Below are positions 1 to 11,894 of a DNA stretch of 64,000 nucleotides, piece after piece. Positions within the stretch are counted from its first letter, which is position 1. The number at the start of each line of letters is the position of its first letter. Origin of the DNA: an uncultured Actinomycetota bacterium (GTDB lineage: Bacteria > Actinomycetota > Actinomycetes > JAHEKZ01); NCBI GenBank assembly GCA_963848085.1, contig CAWKCE010000005.1:559667-623666 (forward strand), given 5' to 3'. Both the position numbers and the translations under genes were made by a program. The notes beneath the pieces were generated by a model, which saw only the letters and a program-made list of their open reading frames with translations, was not told where the DNA came from and did not search any database.

Positions 1-65
1 CCGAGACCAGAGCCCGCTCGAATGCCCGAGGAAGACTGGTCCGTCGCGGTCTGCTCGTCGCCGCC

Positions 66-440
66 ATGTCGCTGGTCGCGCTGTTCTTCGGCATCTGGTG
101 GGTCCTGGTGGTCTTCTTGGACGCGTTGGCGGTGTTCGCGATCCACTACGACCACCGGCACCGAGCGGACAGGGGTGGATGGAAGACGGCACCCGTGAGC
201 AGTTTCGACGCCGCGATGCGCAGGGACCCAAACCCCACATTCGTCATCAACGAGCGCTCGAGCATCTCGGTCGACCGGACCGGTCGGACGTTCGCGGCCG
301 GAAAGCCCAAGGAGCCGACACCGGGGGTGCGCGCAGCCATACGAGGGTCGTTCTGGGACAGCCTGGGCGGTCTGGTGGTCCTGGCCCTCTTCTTGGCGAT
401 CCTGGTCGGCCTGGCCTTCTGGTACTCCCCCGCGCCCTGA
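66..440 (+). CDS. hypothetical small membrane protein (hydrophobic N- and C-terminal segments)
   Basis: ORF track; two hydrophobic stretches (LVALFFGIWWVLVVFLDALAVFAI / LVVLALFLAILVGLAFW); no recognizable domain. Confidence 0.3.
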   Translation: MSLVALFFGIWWVLVVFLDALAVFAIHYDHRHRADRGGWKTAPVSSFDAAMRRDPNPTFVINERSSISVDRTGRTFAAGKPKEPTPGVRAAIRGSFWDSLGGLVVLALFLAILVGLAFWYSPAP

Positions 441-558
441 CCACTGCCGACACCCGACGAGCTCCGCGCCGTGGTCGCTCATTCCTTCGGCAGACCGCCA
501 CACTCGCTCGGCAGGACTGCGAGGGCTGGCGGCCTGCCGTAGGAATGGGGGAACCGAA

Positions 559-604
559 GCGCGCCCGGAGAGACTCGAACTCCCAACCTTCTGATCCGTA
601 GTGA
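559..604. repeat. 46-bp direct repeat identical to the 3' half of tRNA-Arg(ACG) (anticodon loop to 3' end); att site of the integrated element, distal copy
   Basis: gcgcgcccggagagactcgaactcccaaccttctgatccgtagt present at 559-604 and again at 9634-9679 inside the intact tRNA. Confidence 0.8.
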
Positions 605-703
605 CGCGAGGGGTGTTCGTCGTGCGGCGTCTGACTACGTTTCCGCAGGTCACCGCGTTTGCTGGATTCTGACGGACACTCGCGGATTGACCGCATAGCT
701 GTC

Positions 704-728
704 CCCATAGCTGTCCCCAGCGTGGTCA
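704..728. repeat. Tandem 12-bp repeat CATAGCTGTCCC x2 just inside the left att repeat (candidate integrase/Xis arm-type site); related copy GCATAGCTGCC x2 at 9541-9563
   Basis: catagctgtcccc atagctgtcccc read directly; same core CGCATAGCTG(T/C)CC near the other element end, same orientation. Confidence 0.55.
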
Positions 729-931
729 GTGATCTTCTGAGTGGGTTGCTTCGCCCTACTCGGCACCTTCGGTGACGGAGAAGATGTGTACCCCGTCAGA
801 AGTGCCCGTAGCTCGGCTCGTAGCCGTATCAGCCTCGCTGGTGGTTTGGGACTGGCGGGCCAGTCTGGCTCGGGGTTCGGGGTCATTGCTTCTCCAAGTC
901 GCTTGTGACGCTTGGCTACGGGGCTGCTCGA

Positions 932-2104
932 TTACCCGCCAAGAGAGCCATCAGTGACGGGAAGAACCCGGACGACGATCTGAGGGTCTGACTGCGAGGT
1001 TGTCGCGAGCCGGATCGTGCGTGTCCCGCGATCGACGACGTCCCAGTCCGGAAGTTGCGACCGAAGAAACGCCCCGGCCCCAGCAAGACTTTCTTCGTCT
1101 GAAACACCGACCAGCACAGAGCCGTCCGCGGGGTTGCTGCCCAACACAGTGAACTCAATTGAACTGTCGAGACCTTGAACCAGCTGCTCGATCTGCCTCC
1201 TCAGGACCATGACAGCCTGCGCCGTAACCGCGCGAGGGGCGACCACCACAGGAGCTGGACCACTCAACTGCTCTCCGAGACGTTGCGCTTCATCCGGCTT
1301 CAGATCAAGCACGCCGACGATGTAGGCGGTGTGGTCAGCGTTGATGCTGACATCGACGTAGCGGTCACCAAGCAGCGCCTTTGCTCTGCTCACCACCGCC
1401 GACGGGTTCTCAACATCCTCAACAAGGCCAGCGCTCCGCGCCGAGATGTAGACCGCCACAACTTTGCCTTTGGACAGCAGCGACAACTTGGCCGACTCGC
1501 CAACCTGGGATGCGATTCGTGCCTGGTCGGCTGCGCCAATCGCCTTGACATTCAGGGCGTGGTCGGTCTGCCCAGGAATGCTGAAACAGCCGACCAAGGT
1601 CGTACCTGCCTGGCCAGTGCTGAGTTGGGAGGAAGAGACCGAAATCCGACCTGATGTTGTGTTACACCCATCATCCGTCATCCACCACCAACCAGCGTCA
1701 AGCTCGCTGAACACCACGTCCACGGGGTGGCTAAGAGGGCCCTGAGGCTGGGTGATTGGTTCTCCAAACAGTGACTCAGCCCGCCACTTGCCTTCCAGCT
1801 GCGCCACGTCGGTCACCGCCTGCCAGTCTTGACCCTCTCCCGACGTCTGCTCTCCACTTGACGGTGTCGCTGATGGTGAACCAGCAACAACGGGTGGGGG
1901 AGATTCGTGCTGGTAGGGCAGCGCTGCCACCCCCACGACGACCGCTGCTGTTGCCGCCACGGCTGCGGGCACAACTGCCCATTGCCACCGCCGCGAAGTC
2001 TTTGCCACCGGGTCGGCGAGATACTCCGACAACGGCTTAGCTGAGGGCGCCCGCGTCCGCATGTCGTGGAACAGCTCACGCAACTCGCTCTCGAGGTCGC
2101 TCAC
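932..2104 (-). CDS. membrane-anchored anti-sigma factor (short cytoplasmic N-terminus, one TM, about 300-aa extracytoplasmic domain)
   Basis: GTGA start/stop overlap with upstream ECF sigma gene; N-terminal 'ELRELFHDMRTRAPS' then TM 'WQWAVVPAAVAATAAVVVGVAALPY'; typical sigma/anti-sigma operon architecture. Confidence 0.55.
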   Translation of the reverse strand: MSDLESELRELFHDMRTRAPSAKPLSEYLADPVAKTSRRWQWAVVPAAVAATAAVVVGVAALPYQHESPPPVVAGSPSATPSSGEQTSGEGQDWQAVTDVAQLEGKWRAESLFGEPITQPQGPLSHPVDVVFSELDAGWWWMTDDGCNTTSGRISVSSSQLSTGQAGTTLVGCFSIPGQTDHALNVKAIGAADQARIASQVGESAKLSLLSKGKVVAVYISARSAGLVEDVENPSAVVSRAKALLGDRYVDVSINADHTAYIVGVLDLKPDEAQRLGEQLSGPAPVVVAPRAVTAQAVMVLRRQIEQLVQGLDSSIEFTVLGSNPADGSVLVGVSDEESLAGAGAFLRSQLPDWDVVDRGTRTIRLATTSQSDPQIVVRVLPVTDGSLGG

Positions 2105-2613
2105 GACGACACCTCCTCACTCACCTCGAGGGACCGGCGCAGCCTCGCCAGCGCCTTCGAGGCGTTCGCACGCACCGTCGAGGCGCGGCAACCCAACACC
2201 TCGGCTGCCTGCGAGTACGACATGTCCTCGTAGTACCGCAACACCACAGCAGCCCGCTCTGACGGTGACAAAACCGCAAGCAGCGACCACAGCCGGTCAC
2301 GGTCCACTACTTGGTTCTCAAACGACCCACCCGCCGGTTGTTCCACCAGCTCAGCCAGCTCGGCGACCGGGATCTCTGAGGAGACCCGACGTTTAGCGTT
2401 GCGGGTGTACTCGTTGACCATCACCCGCTTGGCGTACGTCACCGGGGAGTCGGCCCTGGCGACCTTTGCCCAGTGCCGGTGAAGCTTCACACATGTGTCT
2501 TGCATCAAGTCCTGAGCAGAGTTGGCAGATCCCGACAGCATGAAGGCAAGCCGAAGCAACGCAGCACCGTGCGCCGCCACCAGCTCCTCCAACGACTCCA
2601 CTCTCACCTCCAC
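2101..2613 (-). CDS. ECF (sigma-70 family group IV) RNA polymerase sigma factor
   Basis: 170 aa; region 2 'AQDLMQDTCVKLHRHW', region 4 HTH 'VLRYYEDMSYSQAAEVLGCRASTVRANASKALARLR'. Confidence 0.8.
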   Translation of the reverse strand: MEVRVESLEELVAAHGAALLRLAFMLSGSANSAQDLMQDTCVKLHRHWAKVARADSPVTYAKRVMVNEYTRNAKRRVSSEIPVAELAELVEQPAGGSFENQVVDRDRLWSLLAVLSPSERAAVVLRYYEDMSYSQAAEVLGCRASTVRANASKALARLRRSLEVSEEVSS

Positions 2614-3000
2614 CTATCAAGACACCCTCAGAGCCCCGAAACGCTGCCACCTCCCATGGTCTTAGGTCCCTCATCACTGGGACGTGGCAATCAGGGCTAT
2701 CCGGACTTGTTTCCAAATCTCCTATCAAGCACTGTGACAGCGCGTACGCACCCGGTGGTCCCCCATCTGACGAGGATCGTCCGTGGAGTGGTGGGGTCTG
2801 AGGTTCGGCGAGGCTGCGTGACGCAGGCGCCATCGACGGAGATCTTCGGTTGGAACATCCAAGTCACGAATCGTAACGAGCTCCACCGCTACAACCGTTG
2901 CGCTTCGCCCGAGAAGCACTGGAGCTTTCAGCGCAGTTAAGGCAGCGGAGAAGACCGAGGGCAGCAAGGGCCGCCCCATCTCGGCGCCCGATGCAACCCC

Positions 3001-3012
3001 TATCTATAGATA
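3001..3012. promoter_or_regulatory. 12-bp perfect AT-rich palindrome TATCTATAGATA downstream of xis-like gene (candidate operator / recombination-directionality or oriT-associated site)
   Basis: Perfect palindrome in an otherwise 70% GC context, inside the lower-GC regulatory region of the element. Confidence 0.3.
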
Positions 3013-3071
3013 CCAGTGTGTACTTCGGGCTGGGGGTCTTTCGCGGTGTTGACGGAAGCCGATCGACCTGA

Positions 3072-3292
3072 CTACGCGGACTCGGCAGCGAGCTGCTCGA
3101 GGTGGGCGACGTAGGCGAGCAGGCTCGTGTAGGGGATGCGGCGTGATCGCCCGAGGGTGACCGATCGGAGTCTCTGTCGCGGATCAGTGCGTACACGTAG
3201 GTCCGCCCCACCCCGAGCGCGTCAGCGGCCTGCTCGGGGGTGAGCAGCAGCGGCGGTACCGCGCTTGTGTGTGACCGGTCTGACGGGTGCAT
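3072..3292 (-). pseudogene. xis: excisionase-like MerR/HTH_17 DNA-binding protein (Xis), apparent -1 frameshift about 3166-3185
   Basis: N-terminal frame gives 'LLTPEQAADALGVGRTYVYALIRDRDSD'; conserved C-terminus 'RSVTLGRSRRIPYTSLLAYVAHLEQLAAESA*' is only obtained in a shifted frame (stop at 3072-3074); strong RBS AAGGAGG before ATG 3292. Confidence 0.6.
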
Positions 3293-3623
3293 CTGGGTTC
3301 CTCCTTGATAGTTGCTCGCTGCAGGAGGTGTGCAGACGCGGGCTCAAGACCGGTGACCCTCGCGCGGACGACTTGCCGCAGGGCATTGGCCAGGACGACC
3401 TGCGCGAGGTCGTCGAAGGCGAATGCTGTGCAGACCTATTGAAGTGTGGCTGTCGCGACGCTTCCGTCGCTGACATGACGAACGCCGTCGCACCTGGAGG
3501 AACGAAATCGGGCGCGGGCAAGCCTTCGGTGGAAGTGCCCGGCTAATCCTGACCCGACGTCCTCGCGCCAGCCGCACGGCAACCCCTCCCGCGCAGGCTG
3601 CCCCAAACGACGAGGAGGGCAAC

Positions 3624-6506
3624 GTGCTGTCAATCGGACTGGTGACCTCGGGTCACGCGGCGGTCGAGTACTTCGTGCGGCAGACCGCTGGCTGTGACGC
3701 TGACTACTACACCCGGCCCGGACAAGCCACGGGACGTTGGGTTGGCGCGGGCGCCCGCATGCTCGGGCTGACTGGTGACCTCACGTCCGACGGCGAACCG
3801 GTCCTTCGCGGTCTGCTCGACGGTCACGGGCCGGACGGCGTCAGGCTTGTTCCGGCGGTGCTTCGCGGTGACCCCCGCGCTCGGCTGCCGGTAGCACCGC
3901 TGGTGGAGGCGGCGCGTGATGCGGCAGTCGAAGCGGGTTTGCCGATCGCTCTGCTACTGGACGACCACCGGCTGACCAAGCAGTTCACCTCGATGGCCAA
4001 GGGTCTGACCGGGGGCGAGGTCGTTCGGACTCGCGGGGTTCGGGTCGACGTCGCGGTGGCGATCGCCGAGGCGGCCGGCTTAAATGTGCAGTCGGTCTAC
4101 GAACCTGATTCACCCGACGGTCACGACCTGGTTGCGGAGGCGCTCAACCACGTCGGGGAGCGCATCGACATCCGTCGGGCGGGCCTCGACCTGACGTTCT
4201 CGGCGCCCAAGTCCGTGTCGGTCCTGATGGCCTTCGCCACGCCGGACGATGCCGATCAGGTTCGTGCTGCCCACGCGGCGGCCGTGGACGACGCCATGGC
4301 CTGGTTGGAGCGCACCACCGCGTTCGTCGCCCGCGGGCATCACGGCGATGGGCAGCGAGCGGAACGGCTCTCATCTGACGGGTTCATCGGGGTGGCTTTC
4401 GAGCACGTGAGTAGCCGCGCCGGTGACCCCCAGCTGCACACCCATGTGGTGATCGCGAACCTGCTCCGCGGGATCGACGGTCGCTGGTCGGCGGCGGACA
4501 GCAAAGCTCTGCATCGGCACGGGAAGACCGCCGGCTACCTGTATCAGGCTGTCTTGCGTGCCGAGCTCACGAAGAGGTTGGGGGTGGGCTGGGGCGAGGT
4601 GGGCAAGGGGACCGCGGAGATCGCCGGCATTCCCCGATCGCTGCGCAGAGTGTTCTCCAAGCGAGCTGAGCAGATCGCGTCCACGCTTCGCACCTCTTGG
4701 ACTGCGGGAGCCAAGGCTGCGCAGCGCGCCTGCCTGTCCACGCGCCCCAGCAAAGACCGGGCTGTCACGGTTCAGGACCTGCGCGATCGCTGGACGGTGG
4801 AGGCTGTGTCGACGGGTCACGACCCCGACCGCATCGTTGCTGAAGCTCTGGGCCAGGAACATCCCGTTAGCCGCGTCGACGTCATCGACATCAGCGATCA
4901 CTTGCTCGGGCCTGAGGGTCTGACTCGGCAGGCGACGACGTTTGACCGGAACGACCTTCTTCAGGCGATCGCAGCGGCGCTGCCCGTTGGGACCGAAGTG
5001 GACGTCGCGGGCATCGAGGCGCTCGCCAACGCAGTCCTGCGCGATCCTCGAGTGGTCCACACCTCCCCTACCGATGGAACCGGTGAGGCTCACGAGTGGT
5101 CCCCCCGCTGGACGACCACCGAGCTGTTGGCCATCGAGCAGCACGCCCTCGATCTCGCCGAGTCGCTGCGGTCTCGTCCAGTCGATGCTGCACCACGAGG
5201 GCTGGTGGAGTGGGCTATCGGCCAACGCAATCTCGGTGGCGACCAAGCCGCGATGGTCCGCGCCCTGACCTCTGCACCGCAGTTGCTGCACGTGGTGGTC
5301 GGCCCCGCCGGGTCAGGCAAGACCGCGGCGCTCGCCGCGGCGGCGACCGTGTGGCAGCTCAACCACCGCAAGATCATGGGGGCGTCGCTGTCCGCGCTCG
5401 CCACCCGGCAGCTCGCCCGCGGCGCGGACATCCAAGCCATCACCGTCGCGCGGCTGCTGTCACGGCTAGACGCCAGCGCCCGGTCTGGCGCCGGTCCACT
5501 GACCGATCAGTGGGTGCTGGTGATCGACGAGGCCGGCATGGTCGGCACCCGTGATCTGGCCCGACTACTTGGTCACGCTGAGGCGGCTGGTGCCAGCATT
5601 GTGCTGGTCGGCGACCCGGCCCAGCTCCCCGAGATCGAGGCCGGCGGTCTGTTCGCCGCCCTGGCATCGGACGCGAGCGCCGAGCTCCACGACAACCACC
5701 GGCAGAGTGAGGCGTGGGAGCAGCAGGCACTGACCCGGCTTCGAAACGGGCACGTTGACCGGGCCTTGGACGCCTACCTAGCTCACGACCGCGTTCACAT
5801 CGGCACCGATGCCGAGTCTCTGCGCAACCGTGTCGTCGCTGACTACGTGCGAGCCGCCGGGGAAAGCGACCACCCCGACAGCGTCGCGATCCTCGCCGCG
5901 ACCCGCCACCAGGTACGGACGTACAACGACGCAGTCCGAGAACTACTCGATGGCGAAGGACTCCTGTCCGGGCCGGAACTCACCATCCCAACCGATGACG
6001 GCGACCTGCGACTGCGCGCCGGGGACCGCGTCCTGATCACCCGCAACGACTACGACCGCGATCTACTCAACGGTGACCGTGCCGTCGTCGCGCACGTGAG
6101 TGCCGAGACCGGATCGCTAACGCTGGCGACTCCCGACGGAACCATCCACGACCTACCCCATAGTTGGCTCGACGACGGCCGACTCGACCACGCCTACGCG
6201 ATCACCTGCCACAAAGCCCAAGGGCAGACCCTCGACGAAACCCTCGTCGCTGACTCCGCTGCCTTGACCTGCGAAACGGCGTACGTCGCACTCTCACGCG
6301 GTCGAAGCACCAACCACCTGTACCTCGCCCCCGAGCCAGGACGTGACGACCCAGCACAGGAATGGCTCACCGACACCGTCCTGACCGACGTCAGCCGACG
6401 CCTGCGCACCAGCCGACGCCACGTCATGGCCGTCGACCAGGTCGGACCAAGTCGAGCCATCGGTATCGGCGACTCGGCTCCGAGCCGCGAGGCGGTGGCC
6501 CTGTGA
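3624..6506 (+). CDS. MobF-family conjugative relaxase with C-terminal RecD-like helicase (TrwC/TraA type)
   Basis: 960 aa; N-terminal relaxase with Tyr-rich start and histidine triad 'DPQLHTHVVIANL'; C-terminal P-loop 'GPAGSGKT', 'VLVGDPAQLPEI', 'AITCHKAQGQTLDE...YVALSRGRSTNHLYL'. Confidence 0.85.
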   Translation: MLSIGLVTSGHAAVEYFVRQTAGCDADYYTRPGQATGRWVGAGARMLGLTGDLTSDGEPVLRGLLDGHGPDGVRLVPAVLRGDPRARLPVAPLVEAARDAAVEAGLPIALLLDDHRLTKQFTSMAKGLTGGEVVRTRGVRVDVAVAIAEAAGLNVQSVYEPDSPDGHDLVAEALNHVGERIDIRRAGLDLTFSAPKSVSVLMAFATPDDADQVRAAHAAAVDDAMAWLERTTAFVARGHHGDGQRAERLSSDGFIGVAFEHVSSRAGDPQLHTHVVIANLLRGIDGRWSAADSKALHRHGKTAGYLYQAVLRAELTKRLGVGWGEVGKGTAEIAGIPRSLRRVFSKRAEQIASTLRTSWTAGAKAAQRACLSTRPSKDRAVTVQDLRDRWTVEAVSTGHDPDRIVAEALGQEHPVSRVDVIDISDHLLGPEGLTRQATTFDRNDLLQAIAAALPVGTEVDVAGIEALANAVLRDPRVVHTSPTDGTGEAHEWSPRWTTTELLAIEQHALDLAESLRSRPVDAAPRGLVEWAIGQRNLGGDQAAMVRALTSAPQLLHVVVGPAGSGKTAALAAAATVWQLNHRKIMGASLSALATRQLARGADIQAITVARLLSRLDASARSGAGPLTDQWVLVIDEAGMVGTRDLARLLGHAEAAGASIVLVGDPAQLPEIEAGGLFAALASDASAELHDNHRQSEAWEQQALTRLRNGHVDRALDAYLAHDRVHIGTDAESLRNRVVADYVRAAGESDHPDSVAILAATRHQVRTYNDAVRELLDGEGLLSGPELTIPTDDGDLRLRAGDRVLITRNDYDRDLLNGDRAVVAHVSAETGSLTLATPDGTIHDLPHSWLDDGRLDHAYAITCHKAQGQTLDETLVADSAALTCETAYVALSRGRSTNHLYLAPEPGRDDPAQEWLTDTVLTDVSRRLRTSRRHVMAVDQVGPSRAIGIGDSAPSREAVAL

Positions 6507-6595
6507 ATGACGTGGTCGTCCACAGATCAGAAGGTCAGTGCCCCCTCTCCACGGGCGATGTCGCACGGTGACGACAGGTTCGAGAGGAGGCCGCA

Positions 6596-7801
6596 ATGGG
6601 TAAACGTGGCCATGGTGAGGGCGCGGTGTACCGCCGCCGCGGCCGATGGGCCGGTGCCATCACCGTCGACATCGCTTCAGACGGCACGCAGCGGCGCCGC
6701 TACGTGTCCGGCGACACCCGTCGTGAGGTCCTGGCTCGATTGGACGAGCTGCGGCGGCAACGCGACACCGGCCGGCTGGTTGCCACCACACGCGGCCTGA
6801 CCGTCGCGGAGTACTTCAGTGAATGGGCGACCGGAACGATTGCGCACCAGGTGGCGATCGGCGAGCTTCGCGAGTCAACCGCAGACAACTACCTCGACCT
6901 CGCGGACCGAATGATCGTCCCGTACCTGGGACGCCACAGGCTGGAGGAGCTCAAGCCCGTTCATCTGAGGGAGTGGCTCGCGAAGCTTCGTCGCACGACG
7001 AACGCGCGCGGCCGCCCTTACTCGTCGCGAACCGTCCAGTTGGTCCATGCCATCCTGCGCCGCGCCCTCAACGATGCGCTGCGCGACGAAGTCGTCACCC
7101 GCAACGTCGCACTGTTGGTTAAGGCTGGCCGCGTCACATCTCCGACGGTTGAGCCGCTGCAACCCGACGAGCTTCAGCTGCTGCTGGTCGAAGCCGCATC
7201 CGACCGGCTGTATGCGCTGTGGCTGCTCTTCATCGCGCTCGGTCTTCGCCGCGGCGAGGCTCTCGGGCTGCACTGGGACGACATCGACCTCGAAGCCCGC
7301 ACGCTCATCGTTCGAAGATCGCTTCAACGGCGCCGTACCAACGAGCTGACACCCAGTGGTCGACGACGCGGTCATCTCGGTGAGGTCGAAACCAAGACAG
7401 AGGCCAGCGTTCGAACGATCGCACTGCCCAACGTCGTGGTCGACGCGCTGAGCCAGCACCGCTGCGCCCAAGAGATTGAAGCGGCTGACGCCACAGTGTG
7501 GGTCAACCCGAACCTGGTCTTCACAACCCACGTCGGCACCTGGCTTGACCCCCGCAATGTGTACAGCTACTGGCACGCCCTCTGTGACCGAGCCAAAGTC
7601 CGACGGTGCCGACCACACGACCTACGACACACCGCTGCCTCAGTTCTGCTTCTGCAGGGGACCGACATGCGGACTGTCATGGAGATCCTCGGCCACTCCC
7701 GCATGGCCACCACATCTGACCTCTACACCCACGTCCTGGCCGAAGTGAAGGCCGACGCCGCAGCACGCATGGACACATTCTTAAGGGGGCTGCAGCAGTG
7801 A
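6596..7801 (+). CDS. int: tyrosine site-specific integrase (phage integrase family)
   Basis: 401 aa; C-terminal catalytic region '[39 protein letters not shown]' (R..H..R..Y), N-terminal SAM-like/arm-binding region. Confidence 0.9.
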
Positions 7802-7907
7802 CACCGGTCGAGCCATCCGCATGCGCTGCCCGCAGGGGCGCCATTGGGACCGGCAACGACCCACTCGATGGGATCGACTGTCTGTCCCTATCCCTAGAGT
7901 TCGTGGC

Positions 7908-8750
7908 ATGAACCCGGTCGAGCCTGTCATTGACGTGTCCGGATGGGCACCCGACGACGAAGAACCGCTCGGCGCACGCGACAAGTTCTGGATCCGTGAG
8001 AGCACCGACCCCGAAGCAACCTGGTGGCTGTTCAAGCGGCCGCGAGCAATAGGACTGCCCGAACTCGGCGCAGACCTGTGGGCGGAGGTACTGGCAAGCC
8101 GGATCGCTGAGCTGCTTCCACTGCCAGCGGCGGAGGCACGCTTCGCTCTCTGGCAGGGCCAGCCAGGGGTGATCAGCAAGCGAGTGGGCGATGGCCTGGT
8201 CCACGGGAACGAGCTCCTGTCATCCCGCAACCCTGGTTACCGCACAGCGCAGGTCGGCCCGGTGCCCGGATATGACCTTGACGCAATTGCCGTCGCTCTT
8301 GACGGCTATGCCGGCAGTGAGACGGGGCTGTCCGCCTTTGAGTCCTTCACGGGATACCTGACCTTCGACGCACTTGTCGGCAACACCGACCGCCACCACG
8401 AGAACTGGGCCGTGCTCACCGGCAGCCAATCGTTGGCGCCGACGTACGATCACGGCGCCTCACTGGGCTTCAACGCCCCAACAGCTCGCCGCGTCGACCC
8501 GGAGGCCTTCGCTGAGCGAGGCCGCGCCCGTCACTTCCCAGGTGGCCCTCGACTCAGCGACCTCGCGCACCAGGCCCTCGGCAGGGTGGACGATTCAGTC
8601 CGAGCCCTGTGGCTCGACAGGGTGAGCGCCCTTGACGCAGGAATGATCCGAGACGCCATTTCGGCGGTTCCCGGTGGCTGGATGTCGGACGGAGCGCGTA
8701 CGTTTGTGGACAACTTCATCGCAACGAACCAGAGGAGGCTGACCCCATGA
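7908..8750 (+). CDS. HipA-family Ser/Thr protein kinase, minimal form lacking N-subdomain 1 (HipT-like toxin candidate)
   Basis: ATG 7908 (track ORF 7821..8750); motifs 'LGARDKFWIRE' (Gly-rich loop), 'GNTDRHHENWAVL' (catalytic DxHxxN), 'LAPTYDHGASLGF' (HipA FYDI-like Mg-binding Asp). Confidence 0.7.
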   Translation: MNPVEPVIDVSGWAPDDEEPLGARDKFWIRESTDPEATWWLFKRPRAIGLPELGADLWAEVLASRIAELLPLPAAEARFALWQGQPGVISKRVGDGLVHGNELLSSRNPGYRTAQVGPVPGYDLDAIAVALDGYAGSETGLSAFESFTGYLTFDALVGNTDRHHENWAVLTGSQSLAPTYDHGASLGFNAPTARRVDPEAFAERGRARHFPGGPRLSDLAHQALGRVDDSVRALWLDRVSALDAGMIRDAISAVPGGWMSDGARTFVDNFIATNQRRLTP

Positions 8751-9520
8751 CCGTTGACGCACTCTCGACGCGGCCTGCCCGGGTGGCCACTCCGAACCGG
8801 TTCCTTGTCTTGTGGCAGTCACCCAGCGACCGTTCCTATCACCGGGTCGGCACCCTCGAGCGTGACACCGAGGGCTACACATTCCACTACTTGCCCGGAG
8901 CCCAGGGCACCTCCGGCTTCGAGGCGTTCGCCGGCTTCCCCGACCCCGACGTCGAGTACCGATCCGAAGAGCTGTTCCCAATGTTCGCCAACCGAGTCAT
9001 GACCCCGAGACGGGACAACTACGACGCCTACGTCCAGTCACTGGGGCTGAGTGACGCCAGGCCCGAACCATTCGAGGTCCTAGCGCGAACCCTCGGCACC
9101 CGAGCCACCGACCTCGTCCAGCTGCTTCCAGTCCCCACCATCGACGCGCAAGGTTTGCTGTCCTTCTACTTCCTCGTCCACGGCAGCCGGCACGTGGACG
9201 CTGAAGCCGAGCGACTGGGCCGTTTGCAGCCCGGCGACGACCTCTACTTGGCCCCTGAGGACGACAACGAGGTCAGCCCGGTCGCGGTCCTTGTCGACAG
9301 CCAGCCGCAACCGACCCGCGACCGCGCCCTGGGGTACGTCCCGGACGTACTGGCACCCCTCGTCCGCGCACTGCTCGCCAGCGGAACCACACTCCGAGTT
9401 GTTGCCGAGCAGGTCAACCTGCCCACTGCCGGGCACGTCTCCGACCACATGAGACTCCTGGCCAGGATCGACGCCATCGCACCCGACGGCTTCGACGTAG
9501 ACGCGGCGCTGTCTTCCTGA
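8747..9520 (+). CDS. HipA N-subdomain-1-like (HipS-like) domain fused to a HIRAN-like C-terminal domain; candidate partner/antitoxin of upstream kinase
   Basis: ATGA overlap with kinase stop; N-half 'FLVLWQSPSDRSYHRVGTL...TFHYLPG...LFPMFANRVMTPRRDNYDAYVQSLGLSD...FEVLARTLGTRATDLVQLLP' parallels HipA residues 1-110; C-half 'LQPGDDLYLAPEDDNEVSPVAVLV...ALGYVPDVLAPLVRALLASGTTLRVV' fits the HIRAN consensus; homology judged by eye only. Confidence 0.45.
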   Translation: MTVDALSTRPARVATPNRFLVLWQSPSDRSYHRVGTLERDTEGYTFHYLPGAQGTSGFEAFAGFPDPDVEYRSEELFPMFANRVMTPRRDNYDAYVQSLGLSDARPEPFEVLARTLGTRATDLVQLLPVPTIDAQGLLSFYFLVHGSRHVDAEAERLGRLQPGDDLYLAPEDDNEVSPVAVLVDSQPQPTRDRALGYVPDVLAPLVRALLASGTTLRVVAEQVNLPTAGHVSDHMRLLARIDAIAPDGFDVDAALSS

Positions 9521-9540
9521 TTTCGCGACGTTCCCGCACC

Positions 9541-9563
9541 GCATAGCTGCCCGCATAGCTGCC
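9541..9563. repeat. Tandem 12-bp repeat GCATAGCTGCC(C) x2 about 70 bp from the tRNA-proximal att repeat (arm-type site candidate)
   Basis: gcatagctgccc gcatagctgcc read directly; matches left-end repeat core. Confidence 0.55.
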
Positions 9564-9634
9564 AGAGCCTCAAAACGACCAAGAGCCGATCCCTCGTGAA
9601 CGAGAAAATCGGCTCTGACCTGCGATGACGTGTG

Positions 9635-9707
9635 CGCGCCCGGAGAGACTCGAACTCCCAACCTTCTGATCCGTAGTCAGATGCTCTATCCGTTGAGCTA
9701 CGGGCGC
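9635..9707 (-). tRNA. tRNA-Arg (anticodon ACG)
   Basis: Cloverleaf: acceptor GCGCCCG/CGGGCGC, D-arm GCTCAACGGATAGAGC, anticodon arm TCTGA-CTACGGA-TCAGA, T-arm GGGAG-TTCGAGT-CTCTC, discriminator G, no encoded CCA. Confidence 0.85.
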
Positions 9708-9791
9708 CCGGCCGCATGCGACCGCCGATCACCATACCGGCCACGTCGTGACGGGCCGAAATCCGTGGGACCGACTCGACGAAGGAAGGAC

Positions 9792-10155
9792 CTAGCCCCG
9801 CGCCGAGTCGAACTCGGCGACCAGCCGCTTCGGCGCGACGGAGCGCCAGGCGTCCTGCACGAGCTCCTCGACCTGGTCGGCAGGTGCCCGGGCAAGGGTC
9901 ACTTCCACCCAGCCATAGCGCCCCACGTGGGCCGCCACGCCGTACGCCTCCGGCGACTCTGCGATGAGGGCTGCCTGCTCCTCCTTCGTCGACTTCACCG
10001 TTGCGCTGGCACCGTCCTCGGCGAGAATCACGAAGATCTTGGACCGCACCCGGAACGTGGGATGGACGTCCCACGTGATCTGTTCGGTGGCGTCTGGCAG
10101 GGCGAGCGCCGCCTGGCGGACATGGTCTGCCGAACTGGGACGAGGCGAACTCACG
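9792..10155 (-). CDS. MmcQ/YjbR-family DNA-binding protein
   Basis: C-terminal 110 aa 'ITWDVHPTFRVRSKIFVIL...GRYGWVEVTL' typical of the YjbR fold; GTG start at 10153-10155 chosen because the track ORF runs through tRNA-Ser upstream. Confidence 0.5.
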
Positions 10156-10223
10156 ACCTCGACCCTAGGACGATCCCGGCCCCAGGGACGACGAAAGCCC
10201 CGGCGAGCCGGGGCTTTCGAGCG

Positions 10224-10314
10224 CGGAGGCGGCGGGATTTGAACCCGCGAGGGGTTTTGAGACCCCAACCCGCTTAGCAGGCGGGCGCCATCGGCCGGAC
10301 TAGGCGACGCCTCC
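10224..10314 (-). tRNA. tRNA-Ser (anticodon GCT)
   Basis: Acceptor GGAGGCG/CGCCTCC, anticodon loop CTGCTAA, long variable arm, T-arm GCGGG-TTCAAAT-CCCGC. Confidence 0.8.
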
Positions 10315-10634
10315 CCGCTGACCTGCGCTCTTGTGAAGCGACTCATCTCCCGCTCCTCGAAACACTGAATGAGGAGTTGCCGGTAGAAGCCGACGGTCAA
10401 GAGGACAAGACAGCGTCGAGAAGTATAGGAGAGCGGACAGGGCTACCCGGCACGGCGCCTCCGGGGCGTGGCGAGGTGGGGGAGAACGCCGGCACGTCAG
10501 CCAGTGCGGCAGCAGACCCGGTCGGCCGGTGGGAAACCGGTTGGCGTTCGCCTCACCAGCGACGATGATCTGCGGGTGTCGTCTCCCGGTGACCAAGGCC
10601 CGCCGCACCGGTCCAACGACCCCACCTGCACCAC

Positions 10635-11894
10635 ATGAGAAGGCCTTCGGCGCGGTTCGTCTACTACGCGAGCGAGTTCTGGCTGTCTGCCTCACACACC
10701 GTGTCCTTCACCGTCACCGCCGTGTACTTCGTTCAGGTGATCGACATGACTCCCCTACAGCTCGTGTTGGTCGGTACGGCAATGGAAGTCGCGGTGTTCG
10801 TCTTCGAAATCCCGACAGGCGTCGTCGCCGACACCTACGGGCGCAAACGCTCCCTCCTCATTGGCTGGCTCGTCATGGGCCTGGCCATGCTCGTGGTCGC
10901 AGCCTCGGGGTCGTTCGTCTTCGTCCTGGTGGCCTTCGCTGTCTGGGGGTTCGGGTACACGTTCACCAGTGGCGCGGACCAAGCCTGGATCACCGACGAA
11001 GTGGGCGTCGCGGAAGTCGGCCGGGTCTTCGCGCGCGGCCAACAGCTCGGGTATGTCGGCGGGCTGATCGGCATTGGTGTGAGTGTCGCCGTCGCCAGCT
11101 GGAGCCTGCCGGGTGCAATTGCGCTGGGCGGCGTGCTCTCGATCGCCTTCGTCGGCTTCGCCCTGGTCCTCATGCCGGAGACCGGCTTCACCCGGCCCGA
11201 CCGGTCCGATGGCCGACGCGGAGCCGGCGTCCTCGTCTCCGGAGTGCGGACCAGCGCGCGCTTCATTCGGGCGCGTCCGCTCCTGCTCCTCATCCTGGCC
11301 ATCGCCTTCTTCGCAGGGGCCTCGACGGAGAGCTTCGACCGGCTGTGGCAGGCGCACATTCTCCTCGACGTCGGACTGCCCTCGCTGGGTTCACTCGACC
11401 CCGTGGTCTGGTTTGGGATCTTTGGCGCCGTGACCATGCTGCTCGGCCTGGTGGGCTCTGAGTACTTGGTCCGTCGCTTCCAGCGGGTCGGTCAGGAGCG
11501 CCTGGCCCGGCTGCTGTTCGTATTCACCGCCGCGCAGATGGTGACGGTTGTCGTGTTCGCGGTGGCGGGAAACTTCGCGGTTGCCGTTGCGGGAATGTGG
11601 ACGTACTACCTCACGCGCTCGCTCGTCCAACCGGTGTACGACACCTGGGTGAACGAGCAGATCACCGACTCGTCGGTGCGCGCGACCGTCATCTCGATCT
11701 CCGGCCAGTCGGACGCTGTCGGACAGGTCATCGGTGGACCAGGGCTGGGGGCCGTCGGGTCCGTGTGGTCCATCCGGGCCGCCTTGCTTGTCGGTGCCGC
11801 GGTTCTCGCACCCGCGCTGGCGCTGTACGCCCGAGCCGTCCAGCACGGTGGCCAGGAGCCGGAGCTCTCCGAGCTACCCAGCGGCAGCGCCTGA
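10635..11894 (+). CDS. MFS transporter
   Basis: 419 aa, 12 predicted TM segments, motif 'GVVADTYGRKRSLLIG' (MFS signature between TM2-3). Confidence 0.8.
   Translation: MRRPSARFVYYASEFWLSASHTVSFTVTAVYFVQVIDMTPLQLVLVGTAMEVAVFVFEIPTGVVADTYGRKRSLLIGWLVMGLAMLVVAASGSFVFVLVAFAVWGFGYTFTSGADQAWITDEVGVAEVGRVFARGQQLGYVGGLIGIGVSVAVASWSLPGAIALGGVLSIAFVGFALVLMPETGFTRPDRSDGRRGAGVLVSGVRTSARFIRARPLLLLILAIAFFAGASTESFDRLWQAHILLDVGLPSLGSLDPVVWFGIFGAVTMLLGLVGSEYLVRRFQRVGQERLARLLFVFTAAQMVTVVVFAVAGNFAVAVAGMWTYYLTRSLVQPVYDTWVNEQITDSSVRATVISISGQSDAVGQVIGGPGLGAVGSVWSIRAALLVGAAVLAPALALYARAVQHGGQEPELSELPSGSA

Follow-up and report, generated by a model that had tools for sequence, protein, structure and literature searches.

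The Bacteroides element NBU1 is about 10 kb long, occupies the 3' end of a tRNA-Leu gene and encodes a single Mob protein, and the actinobacterial element pSAM2 carries an int-xis module, integrates in the 3' part of a tRNA gene and is likewise near 10 kb in size. pSAM2 belongs to the AICEs, which transfer double-stranded DNA by means of an FtsK-like TraB/TraSA protein and replicate with functions of the RepSA/RepAM type. NBU1 and the actinobacterial ATE-1 are examples of canonical integrative mobilizable elements (IMEs), which encode an integrase and a relaxase of their own but neither a coupling protein nor a T4SS (Guedon et al., 2017; PMC5704250). According to that review, the relaxases of known canonical IMEs are of the MobP, MobQ, MobV or MobC families, none being MobF or MobH, and the single actinobacterial IME listed has a MobV enzyme (PMC5704250). 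For comparison, the G2 group of Mycolicibacterium plasmid relaxases measures roughly 1000 aa (PMC8190616). Among possible cargo genes, hipIN modules pair a small HipA-type kinase without N-subdomain-1 with a downstream gene whose product combines HipS-like and HIRAN domains (Gerdes et al., 2021; PMC8262856), a type of module for which toxicity, neutralisation and anti-phage activity were not reported as tested in that study.

Here we describe an island from the chromosome of an uncultured actinobacterium. Like canonical IMEs, it is small, has a tyrosine integrase at a tRNA 3' end and one relaxase, and is devoid of genes for mating-pore or coupling proteins; toxin-antitoxin or defence cargo and a probable dependence on a helper are further points of likeness. 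Unlike the canonical IMEs of the 2017 review, its relaxase is a MobF relaxase-helicase, and mobilization here is deduced from the genes. With AICEs such as pSAM2 it shares an actinobacterial host, an int-xis module, insertion at a tRNA 3' end and a comparable size, but it has neither their double-stranded transfer system nor their replication functions, and carries a relaxase of the single-stranded-DNA type instead.

Limits of the island and its tRNA target

The island covers positions 603-9677 of the window (the whole stretch of 64,000 nucleotides that was analysed) and comprises 9,075 bp in the 3' end of a tRNA-Arg(ACG) gene. Its ends are marked by the following features:

559-602: attL core, a 44-bp copy of tRNA-Arg(ACG) positions 31-74 and an exact repeat of 9634-9677
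9634-9677: attR core, the 3' 44 nt of the intact tRNA-Arg(ACG)
9634-9707, minus strand: intact tRNA-Arg(ACG) (ARAGORN; Rfam tRNA at 9635-9707, 67.7 bits)

An element of about 9.1 kb in this gene had been proposed in the original prediction, and both the size and, by ARAGORN and Rfam, the identity of the tRNA hold. The tRNA-derived direct repeat is also real, but not at the length first given: identity between 559-602 and 9634-9677 is exact over 44 bp, at a spacing of 9075, and is broken directly afterwards (g at 603, c at 9678), so that the "exact 46 bp" of the original prediction are 46 bp with one mismatch. An exact repeat of 44 bp cannot be a chance occurrence. The two cores are the only duplicated tRNA fragments in the window, and an Rfam scan of positions 1-10400 returned two tRNAs and no other match. 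Duplication of a larger tRNA region, which would have spoken against an insertion, is ruled out because the repeat is confined to 44 bp and the empty site described below is precise. Lower-GC stretches were likewise seen where GC content dips to 0.60-0.62 (500-1750 and 2250-3000), with 0.65-0.70 around them.

Empty sites and copies in other hosts

If the island was inserted, an empty site should show an uninterrupted tRNA-Arg that continues into the sequence left of 559, and two independent metagenome assemblies contain this arrangement. Contig L094 matches window positions 1-602 at 100% and 9634-11469 at 99.84%; both alignments include the 44-bp core, a single copy of which joins the flanks, the tRNA-Arg is intact and exactly 9,075 bp are missing. 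Contig L095 has the identical join, from 1-602 to 9634 onward, again with an intact tRNA-Arg, and the flanks in the two contigs match at 99.8-100%. Another sample yielded an occupied junction (L097), and a further contig (L096) has a different sequence at the same site. The same 9 kb is thus not always found in the same context.

Copies of the island also occur in other hosts. In L109, the relaxase, integrase and HipI are 97.0%, 99.75% and 98.3% identical to those of the window, whereas the flanking orthologues are only 70% (CMAS), 68% (FAD oxidoreductase) and 63% (MCP) identical, and near-identical copies of the island have at least five different left flanks. The precise empty site and the same island in divergent hosts establish that it was gained or lost as a unit, and together with the varied left flanks these comparisons demonstrate its mobility. 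The circular attP junction that had also been proposed as a check was not seen: a scan of JGI metagenome contigs for the pattern of right end, core and left end matched no attP junction, circle or tandem of the window variant.

In a contig scan with the MFS transporter at 10635-11894 as synteny anchor, the best matches had only 63% identity and no tRNAs nearby, and gave no information on the insertion site. Homology search indicates that the left-flank protein has 158 aa and starts outside the window; the ORF within the window has 124 aa, and an exact-protein look-up found no record of it. About 870 bp to the left of the tRNA, the same chromosome bears a degenerate att-like scar (L094 915-977).

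Integrase and excisionase

The seven ORFs of the island and the intergenic region between two of them are as follows:

932-2104, minus strand: membrane protein with META domain (PF03724 META, 1.1e-05), putative anti-sigma factor
2101-2613, minus strand: ECF sigma factor, SigE family (Sigma70_r2 and Sigma70_r4_2; TIGR02983 at 3.3e-38, below the curated cut-off)
3072-3292, minus strand: xis (HTH_17 excisionase), reading frame broken by the loss of 1 nt between 3177 and 3176
3293-3623: 331-bp intergenic region between the divergent xis and relaxase genes, with presumed promoters and oriT
3624-6506, plus strand: MobF relaxase fused to an SF1B helicase, 960 aa (Pfam TrwC 6.7e-73, AAA_30 1.3e-50)
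6596-7801, plus strand: tyrosine integrase, 401 aa (Pfam Phage_integrase 7.3e-24 and a SAM-like N domain)
7821-8750, plus strand: hipI-type small HipA-family kinase (HipA_C 2.8e-10; likely start ATG at 7908)
8747-9520, plus strand: hipN-type putative antitoxin, HipS-like plus HIRAN (Couple_hipA 6.4e-05, HIRAN 1.5e-06)

The tyrosine integrase that had been called from the reading frames is supported both by its Phage_integrase domain and by a PDB alignment in which the catalytic residues align, namely the first Arg (GLRRGE), HDLRH, and GHS...LYTHV with the His and the Tyr nucleophile. An exact-protein look-up found no record of this integrase. The excisionase-like HTH gene is present as predicted, but the window copy is frameshifted relative to L081 and L082, in which one extra T gives an intact xis of 73 aa. 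The frame switch is visible in a three-frame translation. As read, xis matches only HTH_17 profile positions 1-25 of 51, and a complete HTH_17/TIGR01764 winged-helix domain does not lie in one frame; the repaired protein, of 73 aa, matches positions 1-48 of 51 at 3.9e-12. Unless it reflects an error of sequencing, this deletion may deprive the window copy of the ability to excise on its own, and the empty sites may therefore be chromosomes that were never occupied, rather than products of excision.

Several short repeats flank the two cores:

644-652, plus strand: CGCAGGTCA, left half of an inverted 9-mer pair, reverse complement of TGACCTGCG and putative protein-binding site
690-725, plus strand: P' arm with two CATAGCTG repeats (694-701, 706-713), putative arm-type integrase sites
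9538-9561, plus strand: P arm with two CATAGCTG repeats (9542-9549, 9554-9561), 92 and 80 bp from the core
9582-9616: hairpin AGAGCCGAT/ATCGGCTCT, read in the sequence and followed by TGACCTGCG
9616-9624: TGACCTGCG, right half of the inverted pair, conserved in right ends of the family

All four copies of CATAGCTG in the 64 kb lie beside the att sites (0.33 expected; four reached in 0 of 100 shuffles). The P' arm spacing of +135 and +147 from the core start recurs in L083-L088, whose integrases are about 80% identical, and on the P arm the distance to the core is 90 and 78 bp in L081, with one copy at 92 bp in L103. The inverted 9-mer is kept in the left ends of L081 and L083 and in the right ends of L103, L104 and L106, where the neighbouring bases vary. 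In the reconstructed attP, the core lies between two CATAGCTG repeats on each side, 80-104 bp away, together with the inverted 9-mer; these elements are probably arm and accessory binding sites. The hairpin was flagged as terminator-like on the minus strand, which is the strand of the tRNA, and may serve as a terminator. A promoter and terminator scan returned no sigma-70-like promoters, and its terminator-like sites were not above chance.

A MobF relaxase-helicase and the candidate oriT region

The original call of a MobF relaxase-helicase agrees with the TrwC match and with the NCBIfam MobF model (2e-68, above cut-off). When aligned to the TrwC structure 1omh, the protein conserves the FEH...DPQLHTH histidine motif and the DYY tyrosine region, and Walker A (GPAGSGKT) and Walker B (VIDEAG) motifs can be read in its helicase part. 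With an HUH domain, histidine triad, N-terminal tyrosines and helicase fusion, it belongs to the MobF family, and it shares the TrwC fold, histidine motif, N-terminal tyrosines and SF1B helicase fusion with TrwC of R388, TraI of F and actinobacterial mobF products. At 960 aa it is close in size to the G2 relaxases of Mycolicibacterium plasmids. The nearest plasmid relaxases, annotated mobF on actinobacterial plasmids, are only about 32% identical, and unlike these enzymes the island relaxase is encoded in the chromosome beside an integrase, not on a T4SS-bearing replicon.

The usual place of an oriT is upstream of the MobF relaxase gene. The intergenic region at this position contains an inverted repeat, GACGACCT/AGGTCGTC, at 3394-3414. 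No nic site was located in 3293-3623 by alignment, inverted-repeat search or folding: across six family members the region is conserved only between near-identical copies, the inverted repeats are all short, and the fold z-score of only -1.8 is not significantly better than that of shuffles.

Cargo genes

The META-domain gene lies downstream of the sigma factor gene, overlaps its stop by 4 bp and is translationally coupled to it. Of the ECF sigma/anti-sigma pair proposed originally, the Sigma70 domains support the sigma factor, and we infer an anti-sigma role for the membrane protein only from this position. The META membrane gene is absent from L081 and L109, which have other genes at its place, and the sigma pair was seen only in the window copy.

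The second cargo unit had been described as a HipA-like kinase module. A HipA_C kinase is indeed present, and the description can be refined: by its domains, the gene pair is a hipIN-type module, corresponding to PADLOC PDC-M03, a name that marks a defence candidate only. HipI matches PDC-M03A at 2.5e-77 (profile 4-294 of 299, aligned from residue 34) and contains the motifs GARDK, DRHHEN and DHG; HipN matches PDC-M03B at 5.1e-71. A PDB sequence search with HipI gave no match, and one with HipN gave only a weak match (E = 0.21) to HI_0666, the HipS of Haemophilus HipBST. Domain and gene order are the same as in the hipIN modules of Gerdes et al. (2021; PMC8262856), with no structural difference. 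The module is most likely an addiction or anti-phage system that would also stabilise the island. The cargo as a whole had been considered unusual. For the kinase this does not stand, since its hipIN organisation (PDC-M03) has been described and toxin-antitoxin or defence genes are the norm in the family; the sigma pair keeps its distinction as cargo of the window copy.

A family of related islands

Among sampled relatives with integrases 44-100% identical, all six whose fetched DNA reaches the right end (L081, L103, L104, L106, L107 and L108) have tRNA-Arg(ACG) to the right of int, and the core matches the tRNA variant of each host. In six of the seven clusters of integrases (P0001, P0011, P0016, P0009, P0026 and P0106), the gene immediately upstream of int encodes a TrwC/MobF relaxase-helicase. 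The cargo varies and consists mostly of defence or toxin-antitoxin genes, and domains of coupling proteins, T4SS, FtsK/TraB or Rep were found in none of the sampled relatives' islands. Cluster members at least 90% identical are labelled Acidimicrobiia and Actinomycetia, and related clusters Nanopelagicales. The family, widespread in uncultured Actinomycetota and mostly undescribed, is built on a conserved xis, relaxase and int backbone with exchangeable cargo on both sides.

Discussion

As judged from its genes, the island combines an integration module with att sites, a relaxase of its own and no coupling or mating-pore genes, as canonical IMEs do. Pfam and NCBIfam scans of the seven ORFs found no VirD4, VirB4, TraB/FtsK, other T4SS families or Rep, and because coupling protein, T4SS, FtsK/TraB and Rep genes are all missing from the island, an IME is the best reading. 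The original view that the element is mobilizable, rather than self-transmissible, fits the gene content here and in every sampled relative. An AICE is ruled out because there is no FtsK-like TraB/TraSA translocase and no RepSA/RepAM/prim-pol Rep, and the absence of a VirB4 ATPase, coupling protein and mating-pore genes from the seven ORFs sets the island apart from T4SS-type ICEs.

We consider it probable that the island is an IME that moves as follows. The tyrosine integrase recombined a plasmid-like circle, whose attP carries the last 44 nt of the tRNA, with the chromosomal tRNA-Arg(ACG), so that the tRNA stays intact at attR and a 44-bp remnant lies at attL. Integration by this integrase at tRNA-Arg(ACG) is strongly supported, and the crossover was probably in or near the anticodon loop because identity between the cores begins 3 nt ahead of the anticodon. 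The HTH_17 excisionase would be required for excision. From the gene content we infer that the island's own MobF relaxase-helicase would then nick the circle at an oriT, presumably within the 331 bp upstream of the relaxase gene, and that a co-resident conjugative element would supply the coupling protein and mating channel for export, both of which the island lacks. The ECF sigma factor and its membrane partner are copy-specific cargo.

The relaxase-helicase could instead serve mainly in rolling-circle replication of the excised circle, like NicK of ICEBs1, or in transfer without a classical T4SS helper, which would make this an integrative replicating island. In favour of this, the island lacks genes for a coupling protein or accessory relaxosome components, relaxase and int stay paired across integrase identities from 100% to 44% and are never seen with transfer genes, and MobF occurs in no characterised canonical IME of the 2017 review (PMC5704250). 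Even so, among the relaxases that serve conjugation of actinobacterial plasmids, MobF relaxase-helicases are the most frequent (PMC8190616), and the closest plasmid homologues carry the annotation mobF on plasmids of this kind. Moreover, replication alone cannot account for a near-identical island in hosts with about 70% identity in flanking proteins, since this requires transfer between cells, and we regard this explanation as improbable.

Loss of transfer genes from a larger self-transmissible ICE or AICE, leaving a decayed and now immobile remnant, would agree with the xis frameshift in the window copy and with the degenerate scar in L094, which indicates that old elements do decay at the tRNA-Arg site. 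We think such a history very improbable: the compact backbone recurs in many independent relatives and is accompanied by transfer genes in none of them; in the window copy neither att end has decayed, and its arm repeats, relaxase and integrase are likewise intact; and copies 97-100% identical are present in divergent hosts alongside a precise empty site. Movement by transduction, as a prophage remnant or phage satellite, hardly enters into consideration: prophages show the same pairing of tyrosine integrase and HTH_17 excisionase at the 3' end of a tRNA, and defence and toxin-antitoxin cargo is common in satellites, but capsid, terminase, portal, primase and repressor domains are present in none of the seven ORFs scanned, and a conjugative-type relaxase is conserved across the family. 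A prophage as such is ruled out because none of these ORFs is a phage structural, packaging or replication gene.

An integrase and relaxase island at a tRNA gene is by itself an expected kind of element, and the IME described here is a new member, and a new family, of that known kind. A bolder reading, which we hold only tentatively and consider rather unlikely, is that the backbone represents an undescribed, widespread tRNA-Arg(ACG)-specific family shuttling defence and toxin-antitoxin cassettes among deeply divergent uncultured Actinomycetota, perhaps by an uncharacterised route that uses an unknown helper, or the relaxase-helicase together with host functions. Characterised mobilizable islands with MobF are not on record in the 2017 review (PMC5704250), and the family offers a defined attP, attB, integrase and relaxase that are testable and possibly useful as integration tools. 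With an empty site, an occupied site and inter-host copies, the island is a clean, fully delimited example of how small islands move defence and toxin-antitoxin genes among never-cultured soil and freshwater Actinomycetota, lineages in which conjugation is poorly known.

The island is a discrete, polymorphic insertion in tRNA-Arg(ACG)

The original prediction described an integrated element bounded by an exact 46-bp tRNA-derived repeat, and our analysis confirms the element while shortening the repeat. A repeat finder returned a single exact 44-bp direct repeat (559-602 and 9634-9677) with a spacing of 9,075 bp, and the base that follows differs between the two copies (g at 603, c at 9678). 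The repeat spans positions 31-74 of the tRNA, from 3 nt ahead of the anticodon (position 34) through the 3' end. Crossover in the anticodon loop by tRNA-targeting integrases yields a repeat of this extent. No further duplicated tRNA fragment was found in the 64-kb window. The island and its target contain the following features:

932-2104, minus strand: membrane protein with a META domain
2101-2613, minus strand: ECF sigma factor, SigE family, overlapping the META-domain gene by 4 bp
3072-3292, minus strand: HTH_17 excisionase-like gene (xis)
3624-6506, plus strand: TrwC relaxase with AAA_30/RecD-like helicase, 960 aa
6596-7801, plus strand: tyrosine integrase (int), 401 aa
7821-8750, plus strand: HipA_C kinase (hipI), probable start 7908
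8747-9520, plus strand: HipS-like and HIRAN protein (hipN)
9634-9707, minus strand: tRNA-Arg(ACG) by ARAGORN (9635-9707 by Rfam)

Metagenome contigs sharing the left flank capture this site in both states. The ORF in the left flank belongs to P0121, a 158-aa protein encoded on several metagenome contigs. Contig L094 (ENA ERZ27256834) matches window positions 1-602 at 100% and 9634-11469 at 99.84%, the two matches overlapping by exactly the 44-bp core, and carries a single intact tRNA-Arg followed by tRNA-Ser; L095 (JGI 3300031565) has the same direct join. The empty site anticipated by the original prediction is therefore represented by two flank-core-flank joins, which show that the 9,075 bp are a discrete insertion and that natural populations of one organism are polymorphic for it. 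Five short Logan contigs stop 1-11 nt beyond the core with tRNA-side bases, endings that fit an assembly branch point. Contig L097 (ERZ28668870) represents the occupied state: it contains the attL junction and differs by three substitutions within the element end. In L096 (ERZ27256827), this flank and the core lead into only 37 nt of further sequence (1668-1704), related neither to the island nor to the 5' half of the tRNA, which indicates that a different element holds the site in that population.

tRNA-Ser(GCT) adjoins tRNA-Arg(ACG) within 9634-10314, and the same arrangement occurs in contigs from distant hosts (L103, L104, L108). As a chromosomal landmark, the tRNA pair is thus conserved among these Actinomycetota.

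Recombination genes and attP anatomy

There is good support for integration by the tyrosine integrase. In an alignment with solved integrases, the GLRRGE, HDLRH and GHS...LYTHV motifs are all in place. The predicted excisionase-like HTH gene is present, though its frame is not intact. As read, xis matches only the first 25 of the 51 HTH_17 positions, and the remainder of a typical excisionase (RLRSVTLGRSRRIPYTSLLAYVAHLEQLAAESA*) sits in a different frame; joining the frames gives a 73-aa protein with an HTH_17 match of 3.9e-12. The near-identical elements L081 and L082 encode the intact 73-aa protein, and a comparison with them shows that the window copy is missing a single T at 3177/3176, outside any homopolymer. 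The window copy is therefore broken, either by a real mutation or by an assembly error.

An attP junction of this variant was not found in the metagenome contigs searched. When right end, core and left end are joined, the reconstructed attP has a symmetric layout, with CATAGCTG occurring twice before the core (92 and 80 bp) and twice after it (92 and 104 bp). These are the only four copies in 64 kb, where 0.33 would be expected, and 0 of 100 shuffles reached four. Their spacing is preserved in related islands L083-L088, where the surrounding DNA is ~71% identical, and also in L081 and L103. An inverted pair conserved in the family lies nearer the core, made up of TGACCTGCG (9616-9624) and, as its complement, CGCAGGTCA (644-652). 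From this arrangement, the CATAGCTG repeats and the inverted pair are putative arm-type and accessory binding sites. Inside the island, just downstream of the tRNA-Arg 3' end, a hairpin at 9582-9616 (AGAGCCGAT...ATCGGCTCT) is followed on the minus (tRNA) strand by the T-run GTCGTTTT. This hairpin could end the tRNA transcript, in which case the island may supply a terminator for the tRNA that it interrupts.

Near-identical islands occupy the same site in other hosts

Integrase relatives include sequences at 99.75% identity (the P0001 cluster, including P0122) and many more at 44-85%. Contigs L081 and L109 carry the DNA of window 2781-8621 at 95.5% identity, in an island likewise bounded by a 44-bp repeat and tRNA-Arg(ACG). 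Whereas the island proteins are nearly identical to those of the relatives (relaxase 97.0%, integrase 99.75%, HipI 98.3%), orthologues encoded on the right-side chromosome are much less so (CMAS-type methyltransferase 70%, FAD oxidoreductase 68%, MCP 63%). This gap means that the island moved horizontally, and recently, between hosts that clearly differ. At least five distinct left flanks adjoin near-identical copies, the one in L111 (below) among them. The named members of the integrase clusters derive from MAGs with the labels Acidimicrobiia, Actinomycetia, Nanopelagicales and Actinomycetota.

At the left junctions of L111 (3761-3855) and L108 (3471-3565), a family-type right end (…CTGACCTGCGA…) directly precedes the core. 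Such right-end/core/left-end junctions indicate tandem arrays of related islands at tRNA-Arg, with two elements in L111. Beyond the left edge of the window, ~265-327 bp from its position 1, the chromosome has a second, degenerate copy of the tRNA-Arg 3' portion (contigs L094, 915-977, and L093, 3694-3756). This copy, 42 nt long and 93% identical, lies ~870 bp to the left of the tRNA even where the site is empty, with the gene for the 158-aa membrane protein in between. Both of its sides resemble family right-end and left-end sequences, and no CATAGCTG arms were found at it. An older or tandem element probably left this copy behind as a scar, which would make tRNA-Arg a repeatedly used hotspot.

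A probable integrative mobilizable element with a MobF relaxase

The relaxase scores above the NCBIfam MobF cut-off, and its alignment with TrwC (1omh) shows conservation of the FEH...DPQLHTH histidine motif and the DYY region. Its closest plasmid homologues are actinobacterial mobF genes, at ~32% identity. No island ORF matched a coupling protein, T4SS component, FtsK/TraB translocase or replication initiator. Having an integration module and its own relaxase without coupling protein or mating pore, the island is a canonical IME by the usual definition. Assignments as an AICE or a T4SS ICE were rejected, the defining genes of both being absent from the island. We infer conjugative mobilization from gene content, because a MobF relaxase-helicase occurs without export machinery and the relaxases of actinobacterial plasmids belong chiefly to MobF (PMC8190616). 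An oriT was not located in the xis-relaxase intergenic region by family alignment, inverted repeats or folding. The IME interpretation in the original prediction is supported and, with the empty site and the inter-host copies, strengthened.

In a 2017 review, the known canonical IMEs carry MobP, MobQ, MobV or MobC and none carries MobF; the one actinobacterial example listed there, ATE-1, has MobV, unlike the island (PMC5704250). Later large-scale screens call any island with integrase and relaxase an IME (PMC10484663), so such elements have probably already been counted. We found no published description of this tRNA-Arg(ACG) family in the literature searched.

A conserved backbone with variable cargo

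Six of the seven integrase clusters sampled (P0001, P0011, P0016, P0009, P0026 and P0106; integrase identity from 99.75% down to 44%) have a gene for a TrwC relaxase immediately upstream of int, the exception being P0058, with xis and int only. tRNA-Arg(ACG) is at the right end wherever the fetched DNA reached it (L081, L103, L104, L106-L108), and the core sequence tracks the tRNA variant of each host. No transfer genes were seen in any sampled member. In elements with ~80% identical integrase, the xis-relaxase intergenic region (L083, 6797-7034) holds ~11 GTGACGG-type iterons and palindromes such as TGACGGACTCCGTCA, a candidate relaxosome or regulator binding array; none of these occur in the window's region.

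Cargo differs between members on both sides of this backbone and includes Fic with PRiA4_ORF3, copper and heavy-metal resistance, a SMODS/CBASS gene, KAP NTPase, PRTase-CE, ParE with antitoxin, PIN with methyltransferase, nucleotidyltransferase and hipIN. The window segment with the sigma pair (733-2780) stands in place of two L081 genes without assigned function. The original prediction considered the cargo of sigma factor plus toxin-like kinase unusual, yet the kinase module is of a known type, a putative toxin-antitoxin system or candidate for defence. The hipI-hipN pair matches PADLOC PDC-M03A (2.5e-77) and PDC-M03B (5.1e-71), and its gene and domain order is that of hipIN modules, in which the HipI kinase is followed by HipN, a HipS-like domain plus HIRAN (Gerdes et al. 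2021, PMC8262856). Its role would be to stabilise the island or to abort phage infection. In the commonest near-identical variant, a ~3.8-kb segment (L081, 8697-12482; L109, 12068-15900) stands in place of window 8622-9087, so that hipI loses its 3' end and hipN its HipS-like half. Genes on the segment are one for a large serine recombinase (Resolvase, Recombinase, Zn_ribbon_recom) and several small ones, among them a DUF1508 gene, and the segment looks like a nested mobile element that disables hipI and hipN at once.

We rate the island as the visible tip of a new family within IMEs. The element type is an expected one; the documented empty site, the inter-host copies and the conserved attP layout are useful rather than surprising, as is the wide occurrence of the family among uncultured Actinomycetota.
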